A stretch of DNA of 64,000 nt from Nitrospirota bacterium (GCA_027021335.1 JALUUO010000068.1:2273-66272), one strand, 5' to 3'. Numbered from the stretch's first letter, positions 26,248 through 59,777 are shown. The notes: generated from the sequence alone by a model not told the origin. Numbers and translations: made by a program.

Positions 26248-26263
26248 TGCAATACTTATGCCA
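26248..26263 (-). promoter_or_regulatory. Candidate sigma54 -24/-12 promoter upstream of nuoA
   Basis: Minus strand TGGCATAAGTATTGCA (GG-N10-GC), about 90 bp upstream of nuoA. Confidence 0.55.
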
Positions 26264-47524: not shown

Positions 47525-47908
47525 ATGCATAAGATTGTCATAGCCATAGGATTTATTAATCTTATGTTCTCAGTGGTAGAATTTTTCAGGCCGGATCTAT
47601 GGGAGAGTTTCTGGAGGGCATGGTCTTGCCACAGGCTGTTTCGTTTTCACGGGGCTTTACTTATTATAATCGCAGCCGTTCTTGTTGCCGCAATGCCAGT
47701 GCCAAGAATGCAGTGGTTTATCTGGATTGCTATTTTCTTCCTGTCACTGGTTGGAGTTGCTATCCTGACAAATCCGGAGCGAACTGCAAAATCTATTATA
47801 GAGTTTTACCTTAGCCGCTCTGAGAATGAAATTCACCAGTTCACGTACATGGATGCAGGACTGCGTGTAACCATCTCGCTCTGCCTGATTTTCTCGGTTA
47901 TAGAGTGA
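47525..47908 (+). CDS. Hypothetical membrane protein
   Basis: About 4 hydrophobic segments; start placed at MHKIV, 15 bp after the mnmA stop. Confidence 0.6.
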   Translation: MHKIVIAIGFINLMFSVVEFFRPDLWESFWRAWSCHRLFRFHGALLIIIAAVLVAAMPVPRMQWFIWIAIFFLSLVGVAILTNPERTAKSIIEFYLSRSENEIHQFTYMDAGLRVTISLCLIFSVIE

Positions 47909-50972: not shown

Positions 50973-52529
50973 ATGCCAAGACTTGATGTGAGGGTAAAGA
51001 CGGAATTACCTGCAAAAGCGATCTGCAATAAAAAAACTTCAAGCGTGATAATATCAGAGTTTAGTTTAAGCGGAGCTTTAGTAAATGGTTTGAATAGTAA
51101 GCATACAGGAATTATTACTATCAAACCTGAGTTTGGTGCTAATAAAAATATAGCTTTAACAGGAGAGATTATCAGGAAAAATAATGGCACAACAATTATT
51201 GAGTTTTACCACCCGGATAGATACGCCGGAGTAAGAGCCTGGCAATACATAAAACAACATCTTTCTCTTACGGAAGAGTGCCCTTATTGCAATAATAAAA
51301 ATAGTCTTGGAGCAGATCATTGTGGAAGCTGTGGTTGGCTGCTTGATTTTAATGATATAGATTATCTGGATAAACATAATAGAGAGATTTTTGTACCAAA
51401 AATTCTTAGGCGTGCTTGCAGCCTTGATCCGGACCAGATGCATACAGTTATAAACTTCATGGATACTGAACTGCGTAAAAAAAGGATGGAATTACCTGGT
51501 ATAACTTGCCCTTACGGCATAGAGCACGAACTGCGCGGCAGCTATTGTTTTGAATCTATCCTAGGACATCATCCAAAGATGATAGCTATTTTGAAACTCA
51601 TTGCCCAGGTTGCAGACACTGCTGCTACCGTGCTGATTTACGGGGAAAGCGGCACCGGCAAAGAGCTTATTGCGCGAGCGCTGCATTACAACAGCAGGCG
51701 CAAAAACGCCATTTTTGCCACCATTAACTGTGGTGCTCTGCCGGAAAACTTACTGGATACCGAGCTTTTCGGCCATGTCCGGGGTGCTTTTACAGGCGCT
51801 ATCAAAGATAAAGCCGGATGGTTTGAACACGCTGATAAAGGCACTATTTTTCTTGACGAAATAAGTGAAATGCCTGCAGCGTTACAGGTTAAACTTCTTA
51901 GAATTCTGCAAACAGGGGAGTACAGCCGTGTGGGCAGCACGAAAATCAACCGCTGTGATGTACGTATTCTGGCAGCTACAAACAGGAATCTGAAAAACCT
52001 TGTAAGGGAAGGAACCTTTAGAGAAGATTTGTACTATAGATTAAATGTGCTTGATATTGAACTTCCACCTCTTAGAGAAAGAAAGTGTGATATCCCGTTG
52101 TTAATACAACATCTGCTTAAAATTTTCAGCGCTAAGTATGCTAAGCCTCACCTGCGTCTTACCAAAGATGCAGAAGCACTGATTTTGGCTTATGACTTTC
52201 CTGGAAATATTCGTGAATTAGAAAATATAATTCAAAGAGCCGTACTTCTGGCGGAGAGCAGTATTATTGAAACGCGTCATCTTCCGGCAGATATCCGTGA
52301 TAAGAGTGTAACTTCTTTGCAGAAAGAAAATAAATTATCATCTTTCAAATTGGCCAAACAGCAGGCGGTAGAACAATTCGAGCGCAAATATATTAGTGAC
52401 TGCCTGAAAACCACCAGTGGAAACATCAGCCGCGCCGCCTTTGCCGCCGGAATCAACGTGAAGAATTTTTATGAGAAGATGACTAAGTACGGCATTGATC
52501 CGCATTCCTTCAAGAATTTTTCAAAATAA
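50973..52529 (+). CDS. Sigma54-dependent activator (bEBP) with N-terminal PilZ-like and zinc-ribbon domains
   Basis: GESGTGKE, GAFTGA, FLDEI, FREDLYYRL, PGNIREL, Fis-type HTH; N-terminal RLDVR...EFSLSG and CPYC-x10-CGSC. Confidence 0.92.
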   Translation: MPRLDVRVKTELPAKAICNKKTSSVIISEFSLSGALVNGLNSKHTGIITIKPEFGANKNIALTGEIIRKNNGTTIIEFYHPDRYAGVRAWQYIKQHLSLTEECPYCNNKNSLGADHCGSCGWLLDFNDIDYLDKHNREIFVPKILRRACSLDPDQMHTVINFMDTELRKKRMELPGITCPYGIEHELRGSYCFESILGHHPKMIAILKLIAQVADTAATVLIYGESGTGKELIARALHYNSRRKNAIFATINCGALPENLLDTELFGHVRGAFTGAIKDKAGWFEHADKGTIFLDEISEMPAALQVKLLRILQTGEYSRVGSTKINRCDVRILAATNRNLKNLVREGTFREDLYYRLNVLDIELPPLRERKCDIPLLIQHLLKIFSAKYAKPHLRLTKDAEALILAYDFPGNIRELENIIQRAVLLAESSIIETRHLPADIRDKSVTSLQKENKLSSFKLAKQQAVEQFERKYISDCLKTTSGNISRAAFAAGINVKNFYEKMTKYGIDPHSFKNFSK

Positions 52530-52534
52530 CACCA

Positions 52535-52577
52535 CAATAAACCAGGGTGCTTTTGCCAAAACCCTGGTAAAAACACC
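52535..52577. repeat. 43-bp palindromic repeat, copy 1 (candidate bEBP upstream activator sequence)
   Basis: CAATAAACCAGGGTGCTTTTGCCAAAACCCTGGTAAAAACACC; 41/43 identical to 60899-60941; contains GGTGCTTTTGCCA-N6-TGGTAAAAACACC. Confidence 0.8.
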
Positions 52578-52645
52578 TAACTTTTAGTCGGGGTTATCGC
52601 GTCCTGTAAAATATCGAAGCTGGCTTTTTCTTTTGCTCTAACTCA

Positions 52646-52661
52646 TGGCATAAAGATTGCT
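52646..52661 (+). promoter_or_regulatory. Sigma54 -24/-12 promoter 1
   Basis: TGGCATAAAGATTGCT (GG-N10-GC) downstream of a bEBP gene and the palindrome. Confidence 0.8.
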
Positions 52662-52704
52662 TATTCAATAACACACAAAGCAACGAAGAAAACAAGGCCA
52701 TGTC

Positions 52705-55790: not shown

Positions 55791-58700
55791 ATGAAAAAAG
55801 AAATCGAGGACATTGAGATCAGTCTCGGCGAACCGAAGGTCAACTCCAACAGGAAGGCGGGGACAAAAGACGTCAACATCCCGATGGAGATAGAATCGCT
55901 AGAGCCCGGCACAAAAGTGGAGGTGCGCTACAGGGTAAATAGTGGGGAGGTACAAACAGTCACCGCTCGACTGGTCAAAAAAGCGGAAAAGCACAGCCGT
56001 TTCACGGCAAAATTGCCAGGTTTGAATGTCGGTGATATTGTCGAGTACTCGGCAATGCCAGTACGGCACGAACATGAATTGCCGACGGGTGAGGAGTTTT
56101 CCAACTTCGAAGCCTTTCGAATTACCGAGAAAGGATTCGAGCGCCTTGCTGCCTCGGAACTGGAAAGCGGCCTCCTGGCCAGAAGGCCACCGACGAACAG
56201 ATATACTTTTCAACAACGTCTGAAGCCGGTACAGCTCATTTTCCAGCCTACGAGCAAGGATGAACCGCCAGTCGAAGAAAACGATTCCATCGAACTCGAA
56301 CTCGGCGTCGAGGCGTTTTCCGACTTTGTGAAAGAGCGCCAGCTCGCAGTGACGCAGGTACACAAAAGTCTCACACAGATCAAGACGGACCTGACAAAGT
56401 TTTTTCCAACGGTCAGGGAGCTTTTCCCAGAAACCATCACGGGTGAGATCCTGAAGCCAGACGGAACCCCGGCTGAAAGAGTATCGGTCGAAGCGCAAGA
56501 GCCCGAATACACATCCAGCGAAAACGTCGCCAATATCGCCTGGCCAACGCCAAAAGCCATCACCGACGAACGCGGCGTTTTCACTCTGCAAATGCCACGA
56601 GTGCCGATTTCCGCAAAGGGACTTACATTTCGCGTTCGCGGACGCAGCAATTCTACTAGTATCGTTTTGGAAAGAAGTGACTTTTTCGGGACGGGTGGAC
56701 GACTGGGGCTTTTGATCCTTGACAGGGAGCTGGCTCCGATGCCGACAAGCATCGTTTCTCAGCTCAAAGATATTGTGCCCTCTGGAGCAGAAGACTCAGA
56801 AGATAATCCGGAGGACTTTGCGGAACAAACGCCACCGATGATCCTCGGCGATGAGACAGATTGCGCGCAGGTCTTTCATTCGAACAGCGGTGTTATCGAC
56901 AGGCATCGTTACTCAATTATGTTCCGACTCGTTGATCCGCTTATCAGCCAGGCGCAGCCGACTGTCCGCTTTCCGATCCAATCAGATGAACTCAAGTTTA
57001 TGTCTCTCTCGTTAACGACGCAGCGCAACAGTCCGGCATTCGAGCGTGCGATCAACCGAGCGTTGCTTGCAAACGGTAAGTTGCGCTACGTTGATCGGGT
57101 TCCGGTGTCGCGTCCCATTGATGTTACGGACTTTTTCACCAACATTGCTGAAAATCCAGACGAAGTCCCGAAGGCAGCAAGCCTCGGACTTGGCTATGTC
57201 GTCAAAATGCACACCACGTGGGCACCAAAAGGCTTGTCGCTGGGCGATATGCTCTACGCATTGCCGCTGGCGCCAGGCGAAGAGCAGCGCGTCGCCATAT
57301 TCGAACAGGAGCAACAACTGGCAGTGCGGGAATCGGAGCGTCTCGGTATTGCCGACGAGCAGATTCTGAGTGAAGTCCGCGATTCCTCGACCGAAGCCGT
57401 TTTTCAGTCGGCATTGCGTGAAGCGGCAAGCGGCGGCAGCAGCTTCCACACGGAAGCCGGCTCGCGGGGTGTTGGGATTGCTGGCGGTATCGGCGGATTT
57501 ATTGGCGGGCTGTTATTTAGCGCTGGGGCTGCTGCCAGTTACGGCGGTTCGTCATCCAGCGGCAGCTCAAATAGCTGGCAGAAGGGGAGTCGGGATTTTG
57601 TTTCTTCTGCAACACAAGATTTTCATTCTATATTATCACGCGTCGCCAGGACGCGCCGTCAGGTGAACCGCTCCAGCGTCCGCCTTGCAACCGCCAGCGA
57701 CCGCGAAGAGATCACGACGAAGCTCATCGCCAACCACAACCACAACCACGCACTAACTATGCAGTACTGGGAGGTGTTGCGGCACTTTTCGGTGAACACG
57801 AAGGTCGATGACGTGCAACTCGTCTGCTTCGTCCCGCTCGATATTGTTCAGTTCCTGCCAAATGGGCAGCCGTTGACGCTGCCGAGTGTTGAAATCACCA
57901 GAGATTTTTTGCTTCATCGCTATCAAATGTTGATTCTGTACAACGATGCGCTTGCGCACCGCCTGCGCAGAAAGCGGAAATATTTTCACGGACTCAAGCT
58001 CTTGCGGGACTTCACTGCCAACCCGGCCATGGGTATCGAAACCTCAAGCGGTTTAGCGGAGGATATTGTTGAAATTTTGGTCGAAGGTACTTTCATGCCA
58101 TTCGAAGAGGTCTTTATCTCCATGTACAGCGATACTGGCAGACGCCTTGGAACCACCAGGTTAAGCCCCGTTGGTTCTGTAGAAGACGTTCCAACTGGCG
58201 ATGACGGATTTGTTTCCTCGGAGGAATTACTCCAGTATCTTAACAACCGTCGTCTCAACGAGGGAGGGTCGACGCATGAACGTACAGGCGCAATTAGATT
58301 GCCGCGGCACATCTCCCGCAGTAATGTTACGCGTTTTGAGCTGACACGTCGTTTTCAATCCTTTACCTACCGTTTGAAGCCGCAGCCGCTCCCTGGTTTG
58401 TTAGGCAGTCTTGGTGACAGCATCATCGGCAACATAAATGACATTCTGAATTCCCAAAACCGTACCGTGACACTGAGTCCGACTAATATTGAAAGGGAAA
58501 TCGGTGGGCCGATGGTGACTACAATAAAAGCCGACATTAAGAATGAAGGCGGCACATCTCTCATCACGTTCGTTGATGACCGAACATCAGAGCGGATGGG
58601 AACCCGTCTCTTGATCCCATCGCGTGACATTCCACCAGCGTTAAGCGAGGCTGATATTTTACATATTGAATCGGCATTCCAGCATATTGTCAGCAATACG

Positions 58701-59777
58701 GTGTCTTATTCGAAAACGATCTGGCAGTCGTTAACACCGGAAGAACGGGCCATCCTTCTCGAACGCTTTACCGTCGGTGTGCCTGAAGGCGGTATCGAAG
58801 ACGCTACACAGGAAGTGCCGCTACTCAATTGCGTCACCAACGAAGTTCTCGGCTTCTACGGCAACGCGATGATCATGCCGTTCCACATTCCGCCCGATGT
58901 CGCTAGTCAAATGGAGGTGACAACTCGTGATGTGCAGGAGGCACTACTCACTTTCCACCGTGAAGGGTTTACTCAAAATCGTTCGACAATTACCCTGCCG
59001 ACGCAAGGTATGCTCGGCGAGACAGTTCTTGGTAACTGCAATTCCAGCGAAAAGATCGATATCACCCGCTTCTGGAACTGGAAAGACTCACCGCATGATA
59101 AGGCAGCACCTGCAGAAACAGCACCAGGTTTCCGCGGTCAAAGCCTGATAGGAAGCACCGGCGCCCAAGCTGCGAGCGTACTGAAACCGCCGCAACCGGT
59201 TAACTTGCTGAACGTCAATACTGCAGACGGCAGTGGAGAGGCGAAATCACTGGCTTCGTCGCTCATCGACAAAGCGATTACAACAGGTACTTTTGGCGAC
59301 CTCACTGGGAAAGACAAACTGGCGGCACTGCAAACCGAGACACTGAAGACCGCCGAGAGCGCTCGTGATAAAGCGTTATCGGCAGCCAAAGGAATGGCCG
59401 AAAAAGTCATTGATAAACTCCCGGACGTTATGAAAACCAAAGCCGGTATCGATGAAAAGCAGGAAAAGAAACAGGAAGAGATAAAGGAGAAGCAGAAAAA
59501 GGCGAAGGAAAAGAAAAAATCCGATGGCATCGCAAAGCTGAAAGAAGGAGCTAAAGGTTTCACCCTTCTGGCAGGGAGTCATCATCCTGACGAAGAAAAG
59601 GCGACCAACGAGGCAAAAAAAATTGTCAATGATATTTTCGGTGATGAACTACCCGGACGTTCAGCCCTCGCAACGCTGCTCGAAACCTTCTCTATCGCAG
59701 AAGGTGACTCGGACAAGGTGAAGCTCGGCAAAACGACCATCCTGAAGGCGCTTGGGTTGCCTGTGCCGACGTCATAA
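55791..59777 (+). CDS. Large hypothetical protein (Ig-like N-terminus, carboxypeptidase-regulatory-like module, Gly/Ser-rich hairpin core)
   Basis: 1328-aa ORF with AAGGAGG SD; ITGEILKPDGTPA...TDERGVF module; central Gly-rich hydrophobic segment; Lys/Glu-rich tail. Confidence 0.8.
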   Translation: MKKEIEDIEISLGEPKVNSNRKAGTKDVNIPMEIESLEPGTKVEVRYRVNSGEVQTVTARLVKKAEKHSRFTAKLPGLNVGDIVEYSAMPVRHEHELPTGEEFSNFEAFRITEKGFERLAASELESGLLARRPPTNRYTFQQRLKPVQLIFQPTSKDEPPVEENDSIELELGVEAFSDFVKERQLAVTQVHKSLTQIKTDLTKFFPTVRELFPETITGEILKPDGTPAERVSVEAQEPEYTSSENVANIAWPTPKAITDERGVFTLQMPRVPISAKGLTFRVRGRSNSTSIVLERSDFFGTGGRLGLLILDRELAPMPTSIVSQLKDIVPSGAEDSEDNPEDFAEQTPPMILGDETDCAQVFHSNSGVIDRHRYSIMFRLVDPLISQAQPTVRFPIQSDELKFMSLSLTTQRNSPAFERAINRALLANGKLRYVDRVPVSRPIDVTDFFTNIAENPDEVPKAASLGLGYVVKMHTTWAPKGLSLGDMLYALPLAPGEEQRVAIFEQEQQLAVRESERLGIADEQILSEVRDSSTEAVFQSALREAASGGSSFHTEAGSRGVGIAGGIGGFIGGLLFSAGAAASYGGSSSSGSSNSWQKGSRDFVSSATQDFHSILSRVARTRRQVNRSSVRLATASDREEITTKLIANHNHNHALTMQYWEVLRHFSVNTKVDDVQLVCFVPLDIVQFLPNGQPLTLPSVEITRDFLLHRYQMLILYNDALAHRLRRKRKYFHGLKLLRDFTANPAMGIETSSGLAEDIVEILVEGTFMPFEEVFISMYSDTGRRLGTTRLSPVGSVEDVPTGDDGFVSSEELLQYLNNRRLNEGGSTHERTGAIRLPRHISRSNVTRFELTRRFQSFTYRLKPQPLPGLLGSLGDSIIGNINDILNSQNRTVTLSPTNIEREIGGPMVTTIKADIKNEGGTSLITFVDDRTSERMGTRLLIPSRDIPPALSEADILHIESAFQHIVSNTVSYSKTIWQSLTPEERAILLERFTVGVPEGGIEDATQEVPLLNCVTNEVLGFYGNAMIMPFHIPPDVASQMEVTTRDVQEALLTFHREGFTQNRSTITLPTQGMLGETVLGNCNSSEKIDITRFWNWKDSPHDKAAPAETAPGFRGQSLIGSTGAQAASVLKPPQPVNLLNVNTADGSGEAKSLASSLIDKAITTGTFGDLTGKDKLAALQTETLKTAESARDKALSAAKGMAEKVIDKLPDVMKTKAGIDEKQEKKQEEIKEKQKKAKEKKKSDGIAKLKEGAKGFTLLAGSHHPDEEKATNEAKKIVNDIFGDELPGRSALATLLETFSIAEGDSDKVKLGKTTILKALGLPVPTS

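Follow-up and report, generated by a model that had tools for sequence, protein, structure and literature searches.

A widespread family of giant hypothetical proteins with a conserved partner gene, viewed from a Nitrospirota locus: possible membrane-docking effectors

What does a protein of 1328 residues do when its sequence resembles nothing that has been named? The question is raised by an open reading frame in a 64,000-nucleotide stretch of DNA from a Nitrospirota bacterium (GCA_027021335.1 JALUUO010000068.1:2273-66272; the whole stretch is hereafter the window), which codes for what we call the giant protein. An initial annotation had read its core as a beta-pore former of the aerolysin/ETX-MTX2 type, in which Ser/Thr-rich strands would flank a membrane-inserting hairpin and oligomerisation would follow cleavage by the product of an adjacent S8 protease gene. 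The analysis described here does not bear out a core of that type, and points instead to a two-gene unit composed of the giant gene and a downstream partner, belonging to a very large and apparently mobile family, for which we tentatively propose a membrane-docking role inside the cell.

The reading frame is real, being open over all of its codons and preceded by AGGAGG 8 nt 5' of its ATG. The four blocks of sequence singled out by the initial annotation are all present: LGDMLYALPLAPGEEQRV at residues 484-501 (nt 57240-57293), a Gly-rich hydrophobic segment at residues 560-596 (nt 57468-57578), IANHNHNHALTMQYWEVLRHFSV at residues 646-668 (nt 57726-57794), and LPTQGMLGETVLGNCNSSEKIDITRFWNWKDSP at residues 1069-1101 (nt 58995-59093, exactly as first placed). 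In an alignment of 69 family sequences, 27-82% identical to the query giant protein, these motifs prove to be the most conserved parts of the family, with G485, L493, P495, E497, N648, N650, T656, Q658, and R1093 invariant and the RFWNWxD block at least 90% conserved. Conservation of this kind across 69 members rules out chance as a source of the motif blocks. The biased composition is also as described, Ser, Thr, and Gly making up 54% of residues 549-598, and Lys and Glu 40% of residues 1196-1262 in the tail.

The family is large. An exhaustive HMMER search with giant-protein residues 434-1136, counted in clusters at 50% identity, returned 2488 representative clusters when the threshold was E<=1e-3, and still 792 when it was tightened to E<=1e-30; member lengths run from approximately 1100 to 2456 aa, and identity across phyla is 27-50% over about 1000 residues. 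Named members are present in the Alpha-, Beta-, and Gammaproteobacteria, Actinomycetota, Verrucomicrobiota, Acidobacteriota, and Binatia, and include Sphingomonas, Ruegeria, Loktanella, Arenicellales, Rhodobiaceae, Cellulomonas, Actinotalea, Rhodoglobus, Terrimicrobiaceae, Chthoniobacterales, and Bryobacteraceae. A further 33 matching records are plasmids, among them those of Streptomyces, Ralstonia, Novosphingobium, Nostoc, Bacillus, and the archaeon Haladaptatus. Throughout these records the annotation is 'hypothetical protein'. Single-protein and profile queries of Pfam, NCBIfam, PADLOC, PHROGs, and PDB sequences gave no match to the giant protein, a Pfam scan of its whole length at E<=0.01 returned no family, and in the ESM Atlas it matches unnamed clusters only (0.79-0.83). 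The titles and abstract openings retrieved by a literature search contain no description of the family or of the gene pair.

None of the 40 genomes of relatives carries the giant gene, and its GC content of 0.523 (GC3 0.57), compared with a genome mean of 0.455, is reached in just 0.9% of 4-kb windows; the gene thus appears to lie outside the core genome of its lineage and the family to be horizontally mobile. A phage origin was considered and rejected: a scan of viral contigs with two peptide patterns yielded 29 candidate stretches, none of which encodes a relative of the giant protein, and a search of 50,697 phage records gave a single weak match, located on an unverified and unannotated high-GC scaffold without recognised phage genes.

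The gene that follows is a constant companion. We examined 88 related loci (8 from genomes and 80 from metagenomes), of which 60 extend for 1600 nt or more beyond the match; all but one of these 60 (59 loci) have the 331-aa partner gene, which in some loci overlaps the giant-gene stop codon by 8 nt. The S8 gene is absent from all 88, including two loci whose giant genes are 79-81% identical to the one described here. This contrast argues that the conserved unit is the giant gene plus its partner, as judged from gene content, and that the S8 gene is a local addition. The partner has a GC content of 0.544, as high as that of the giant gene; its 96 homologues show 34-81% identity throughout the family, whichever tail the giant protein has, and some versions begin with an IPT/TIG domain or form part of a larger fusion protein. 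No family was assigned to it in Pfam, NCBIfam, PADLOC, PHROGs, or PDB sequence searches. A Y-family polymerase identity returned by the ESM Atlas was rejected because the partner model has a pLDDT of 0.34 and is unusable. In our judgement the pair does not belong to any kind of system known so far.

How the giant protein is built was approached with AlphaFold2 models made from family alignments, one spanning residues 165-1200 (mean pLDDT 73.7) and one residues 365-750 (mean pLDDT 76.6), and the resulting domains are collected in Table 1 with the other features of the locus. Residues 1-164 are variable and are present in about 28% of members; after a long helix (residues 173-204) comes a seven-stranded beta-sandwich, so that the carboxypeptidase-regulatory-like module anticipated by the initial annotation is indeed found, and this transthyretin-like sandwich is the sole match when the whole core model is compared with the PDB by Foldseek. 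The sheet of the core domain contains two strands of 26-28 residues with pLDDT above 90, and the insert between them consists, in order, of acidic helices, a Gly/Ser-rich hydrophobic loop of low pLDDT (residues ~549-598), a poly-Ser stretch, and a basic helix that is amphipathic in 77 of 86 family members. The loop is the only hydrophobic stretch in the giant protein. As judged from the order of secondary-structure elements rather than from coordinates, the PGEE turn and the N-H-N-H-x-H loop would share one end of the long strands, the end at which the insert exits the sheet.

Table 1. Positions of the giant gene, its predicted domains, and the neighbouring features, in window coordinates.
Feature	Position	Strand	Basis or remark
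Sigma-54 enhancer-binding activator (AAA+, HTH_8)	50973-52529	+	Pfam Sigma54_activat 1.8e-69, HTH_8
43-nt block with inverted repeat, candidate activator binding site	52535-52577	+	second copy 60899-60941
Sigma-54-type promoter-like site TGGCATAAAGATTGCT, 5' of the S8, giant, and partner genes	52646-52661	+	one mismatch to TGGCAC-N5-TTGCW
73-aa ORF, truncated receiver-gene copy, overlapping the S8 start codon	52705-52926	+	43 codons, 139 nt, 87% identity
S8 subtilase, 907 aa	52923-55646	+	Peptidase_S8 1.2e-41, residues 241-527
Giant protein, 1328 aa	55791-59777	+	stop-free translation
Transthyretin / carboxypeptidase-regulatory-like beta-sandwich, residues 210-313	56418-56729	+	seven-stranded fold found
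Core alpha+beta domain, residues 370-745	56898-58025	+	holds PGEE and NHNHxH motifs
Insert between the two long core strands, residues 505-640	57303-57710	+	model, family-wide hydropathy
PLAT/LH2-like beta-sandwich with helical inserts, residues 753-946	58047-58628	+	structure search
C-terminal alpha/beta domain, residues 950-1101, ending RFWNWKDSP	58638-59093	+	conservation
Predicted linker and Lys/Glu-rich helical tail, residues 1102-1328	59094-59774	+	pLDDT <50
Partner gene, 331 aa	59842-60837	+	present in 59/60 loci with >=1600 nt downstream

Behind the core lies an eight-stranded sandwich that can be superposed on known PLAT domains, with no Pfam PLAT match at E<=0.01, followed by an alpha/beta domain with conservation of 0.63-0.75 per 40-residue block in which E960, E985, G1024, G1073, and R1093 are invariant and one His and one Cys nearly so. 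The remainder is modelled as a disordered linker plus a charged helical tail; this end varies in the family, and other members have Peptidase_C70 or DUF2272 there. When residues 365-750 were compared with the PDB by Foldseek, no match was convincing (best E-value 0.08). A Foldseek search of BFVD matched an uncharacterised Yasminevirus protein of 642 aa (A0A5K0U6Q4) over 519 columns (E 6e-6, probability 1.00), which, on the model, could be distantly related to the core; the remaining BFVD matches are sandwich matches.

The layout expected of a beta-pore former is therefore present in part. A long strand, a Gly-rich hydrophobic insert, and a second long strand succeed each other, and these long antiparallel strands with their Ser/Thr/Gly-rich insert share the topology of aerolysin pore modules, but the flanks of the loop are modelled as an acidic and a basic helix and not as Ser/Thr-rich strands. 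For all that this order recalls aerolysin, membership is unsupported, and the defining amphipathic hairpin was tested for and not found: in beta hydrophobic moment the loop does not differ from shuffled sequences (1.24 versus 1.23), with 35 of 86 members exceeding their own shuffles, while the acidic helix falls short of its shuffles (15 of 86 members above) and the basic helix matches them (40 of 86). By this measure the loop seems to lack the alternating polar/hydrophobic signature of a beta-barrel hairpin, as do the helices beside it, in which a concealed alternation like that of the helical clusters of MACPF/CDC and gasdermin pore formers, which refold into hairpins, was looked for and not found. 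Small residues at period 2 and period 4 in the loop do exceed shuffles, in 64 and 62 of the 86 members respectively, a modest enrichment. The giant protein has no Pfam match to aerolysin, ETX_MTX2, MACPF, or gasdermin, and MACPF and gasdermin are not among the structural matches listed. We find no support for placing it in any of these pore-former families. What does survive, in part, is the idea of a membrane-binding element, in the form of the PLAT/LH2-like lipid-binding domain.

On which side of the membrane this element would act can be considered from the N-termini. No signal peptide was found in the giant protein or in 15 other members (0 of 16), although export may take another route. 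Among 29 long members, N-terminal fusions to DUF4332 are present in 21 (and in 4 of 5 in a second scan), to the L7/L12 C-terminal domain in 4, and to EF-Ts in one; the EF-Ts domain occupies residues 32-229 of P0192, and copies of the L7/L12 domain stand at N-termini among P0179, P0199, P0190, and P0172. Some of the longer members have LRR, I-set, or Big_2 domains at the N-terminus, and a search for longer fused forms found P0174 alone. L12 and EF-Ts both bind EF-Tu, and in one locus (L073) an EF-G-like gene is directly upstream of the giant-gene homologue. These fusions and this neighbour suggest a link to translational GTPases, and argue for a cytoplasmic giant protein. The combination of a PLAT-like domain with a hydrophobic loop of about 27 residues and paired flanks would suit a peripheral or monotopic contact with the membrane more readily than a pore across it.

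Proteases recur beside the family, and the S8 gene is one instance among several. Of 82 loci with a recognisable giant gene, 40 have a co-directional ORF within 400 nt upstream, and by Pfam assignment these comprise six encapsulins, four neprosins, two SDH ClpP-like proteases that also match NfeD1b_N (assigned to L027 and L032 by elimination), and one each of a rhomboid, a KAP NTPase, the EF-G-like protein, and a sigma-54 activator, the rest being assorted unrelated genes or without a family. The neprosin neighbours have no signal peptide, and on the Novosphingobium plasmid pLA5 a neprosin-family gene also immediately precedes the homologue. Five of 34 long members scanned carry a C-terminal Peptidase_C70 fusion, and one distant homologue is fused to DUF2272. 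In a FastTree phylogeny of 79 homologues the neprosin neighbours are confined to a single clade, as are the SDH neighbours and the encapsulin neighbours to theirs, and the rhomboid and S8 neighbours are single rows; with protease neighbours restricted to clades in this way, four families of different catalytic type would have been captured separately, and they look like separate acquisitions.

The proposed processing by the adjacent S8 protease accordingly divides into two parts. Linkage to a protease does recur in the family (7 of 40 upstream neighbours, together with the C70 fusions), and the S8 and giant genes have a sigma-54 promoter region in common. As a dedicated partner, however, S8 fares badly, being missing even next to the most similar giant genes and having a GC3 of 0.38 against 0.57. 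None of the 40 relatives' genomes has a full-length S8 relative, and no transmembrane or signal segment was found in the protein. The difference in composition indicates that the S8 and giant genes did not co-evolve, and points to S8 as a separate acquisition, added in this lineage only.

The DNA around the three genes suggests how they may be controlled. The activator gene upstream of S8 codes for an N-terminal 190 aa without a known domain, and the relatives' genomes match it only from residue ~160-225 onward; four close relatives (G001-G004) have 12-26 sigma-54 activator genes each, none with the N-terminal 160-180 residues of the window activator. Between the activator and the S8 gene are the 43-nt block, a candidate activator binding site, and the promoter-like site. 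Each has a second copy in front of the next operon: the two 43-nt blocks are 95% identical, with no other copy in the 2.7-Mb genome, and the 66 nt around TGGCATAAAGATTGCT (52622-52687) recur at 61033-61098 with 73% identity and with GG and GC kept, and nowhere else in the genome. Sigma-54-like sites in the window as a whole are not above chance (3 versus 2.7 expected), and the case for TGGCATAAAGATTGCT as a promoter is made by its placement and duplication, not by the window-wide count. From the duplicated element and promoter and the adjacent activator it would follow that the S8, giant, and partner genes very probably form one predicted sigma-54 operon under the neighbouring activator, which very probably arose when local duplications built up around a gene pair acquired from elsewhere. 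The two duplicated blocks probably mark out the whole regulon of this activator. Sigma-54 activators are also upstream of homologues in three other loci (L047, L069, and L075).

The 73-aa ORF at the start of the S8 gene derives, as a truncated copy, from the 5' end of a 122-aa receiver-domain gene that matches Response_reg and lies about 13 kb downstream, past the end of the window, at window-equivalent 65884-66252; the ORF is probably a leader remnant. Behind the second promoter copy is the first of two genes for secreted proteins of approximately 625 aa with weak NHL/DUF6923 propeller-like matches (61150-63036, and 63043 to window-equivalent 64920). Beyond the window this pair is followed by a Peptidase_C13 lipoprotein and then by three paralogous proteins of unknown function (242-262 aa). 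Elsewhere in the window, two more sequences resemble sigma-54 promoters, each with no more than one mismatch, at 26248-26263 (-) and 47689-47704 (-).

The reading that we put forward, tentatively and without regarding it as probable, is that the giant protein acts in the cytoplasm, under tight regulation, as an effector that is licensed by a protease, docks on or perturbs a membrane, and works together with the 331-aa partner. In such a protein the elongated beta-sheet core would hold out the Gly/Ser-rich hydrophobic loop on an acidic/basic helical hairpin, the variable N-terminus, ahead of the transthyretin-like sandwich, would be an adaptor, and the PLAT-like domain and hydrophobic loop together would engage the inner leaflet from the cytoplasmic side. 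A lineage-specific protease would license the latent effector, here the S8 subtilase, whose co-transcription we propose, and the adjacent sigma-54 activator would switch on the whole operon. Directly shown are the existence of the family, its partner gene, its domain layout, its lack of signal peptides, its neighbouring protease and encapsulin genes, and the doubled promoter; membrane engagement, cleavage by a protease, and any role in cell death or conflict are inferred.

The nearest parallel in logic is with the bacterial gasdermin systems, in which a pore-forming effector is licensed by an adjacent protease. The likeness consists of a membrane-active element, varied protease neighbours, the lack of a signal peptide, and a patchy horizontal spread; the differences are that the giant protein is five times larger, has no gasdermin sequence or fold match and no PADLOC match, and has as its obligate partner a 331-aa protein and not a protease, most loci having no protease at all. 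With PLAT/LH2 proteins such as clostridial alpha-toxin, lipoxygenases, and lipases the giant protein has the eight-stranded sandwich in common, and it differs from them in the helical inserts, in the lack of a Pfam match, and in having no lipase, lipoxygenase, or phospholipase catalytic domain attached.

Several observations weigh against this proposal. As a membrane segment the loop is a marginal case, with weak values in some members (KD19 0.2-0.9) and low model confidence, and a modelled complex of giant-protein residues 440-1108 with the partner yields no verdict, having scored 0.00 in two runs made without controls. Linkage to proteases is sporadic: 33 of the 40 upstream genes code for something other than a protease, and in L010 and L011, the closest relatives, the place is taken by a nitrilase or a phosphoesterase fragment. 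The S8 gene also differs in composition from the giant gene. The neighbourhoods viewed are metabolic and are not defence islands; PADLOC returns no family for the giant protein or the partner, and matches S8 and the sigma-54 activator with generic models only. Finally, the clade with encapsulin genes points to a different logic.

That logic belongs to an explanation which we consider possible though unlikely, namely that the giant protein belongs to a protein cage, as a structural component or as cargo, associated through its C-terminal peptide with an encapsulin-like shell, or else an SPFH/FliL-like membrane scaffold, with the proteases as processing partners in the way that NfeD is a processing partner of stomatin. 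An encapsulin gene (Linocin_M18) is directly upstream in 6 of the 40 loci (L051, L068, L069, L075, L085, and L087), all in one clade with 100% support and coding for encapsulin-like proteins of 376-446 aa. Four of the five giant-protein C-termini viewed from this clade consist of a Gly/Ala-rich linker ending in ...LLA, ...LLAL, or ...VALA, and a flexible linker with a short hydrophobic end is the layout of encapsulin cargo tags. The NfeD1b_N matches of the two SDH neighbours and the long charged helical tail also favour an explanation of this sort. However, Linocin_M18 has no match in this genome at 96% completeness, the upstream gene is something else in 34 of the 40 loci, the giant proteins contain no recognised cargo enzyme family, and we know of no encapsulin cargo type that is not far smaller than their 1200-1400 aa. 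For the core, an HK97/encapsulin-like fold was rejected, HK97-fold capsid proteins being missing from the top 50 structure matches, and SPFH homology gained no support, profile-profile comparison with 29 SPFH proteins by hhalign giving a probability of 0.15%, a score below noise. The giant protein further differs from the SPFH (stomatin/HflK/C) and FliL proteins in that its hydrophobic element is internal and not an N-terminal anchor.

Two side observations concern the encapsulin-linked loci. Five of the six encapsulin-like proteins have a long N-terminal extension that is mostly Gly-, Ser-, Pro-, Ala-, or Gln-rich, and in two loci a conserved ORF of 120-126 aa and unknown function precedes the encapsulin gene.

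It is doubtful that the giant protein is a large toxin released without a signal peptide, with receptor-binding modules at the N-terminus, a central translocation region, a variable C-terminal effector, and the partner as its chaperone or immunity protein. The placing of a constant core between two variable ends is of the kind that such a toxin would have, as are the LRR, I-set, or Big_2 modules and the Peptidase_C70 or DUF2272 domains at opposite ends of the longer members, and the family is found on plasmids and megaplasmids, including those of Ralstonia. Most members, however, at 1100-1350 aa, have no recognisable effector domain, the partner stays 34-81% identical whatever the tail, unlike immunity proteins, and no secretion-system genes were seen beside the pair in the neighbourhoods viewed. 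The EF-Ts, L12, and DUF4332 fusions and the signal-less neprosin neighbours also point to the cytoplasm of the producer.

A broader version of the effector proposal deserves mention, and we hold it to be quite unlikely as a whole. It would make these proteins a new and widespread class of protease-licensed, membrane-attacking effectors of cell death or stress, following the logic of gasdermins with an unrelated fold, with the variable N-terminal modules, EF-Ts and L7/L12 copies among them, serving as sensors or decoys for translation state or phage infection, and with storage in encapsulins in one clade.

More improbable is an enzyme, in which the PGEE turn and the N-H-N-H-x-H loop would bind a metal or cleave the protein's own chain, or the Cys/His/Glu residues of the C-terminal domain would form the active site, and in which the other domains would provide targeting only. 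The invariance of E497, N648, N650, T656, and Q658 with conserved His around them, that of E960, E985, and R1093 beside the nearly invariant His and Cys, and the position of these candidate active-site blocks as the most conserved in the family speak for an enzyme; against this, no enzyme family is matched by sequence, nor by structure for the core, and the closeness of the two motifs was read from secondary-structure order and not from coordinates. A secreted aerolysin/ETX-MTX2-type toxin whose hairpin inserts after S8 cleavage and oligomerisation is very improbable, for its topology, its periodic small residues, and a protease predicted in the same operon are set against the missing family-model match, amphipathic hairpin, and signal peptide, the charged helical flanks, the cytoplasmic fused domains, and the absence of S8 from every related locus. 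The remaining probability goes to something else.

Returning to the protease-licensed effector that we tentatively favour, the family offers several handles on its biology, including a lipid-binding domain with a conserved hydrophobic loop, the repeated capture of unrelated proteases, and the fusion of some members to translation-factor-binding domains. With its thousands of clusters, spread over many phyla and found on plasmids too, the family is at present without a name, a domain model, or a structural relative for the core or for the obligate partner. If the giant proteins are linked to encapsulins they would be by far the largest type of cargo known to us, and if they are protease-gated membrane effectors they would constitute a new branch of the bacterial cell-death machinery; with either outcome, membrane effector or encapsulin cargo, the annotation of thousands of 'hypothetical' genes would follow.

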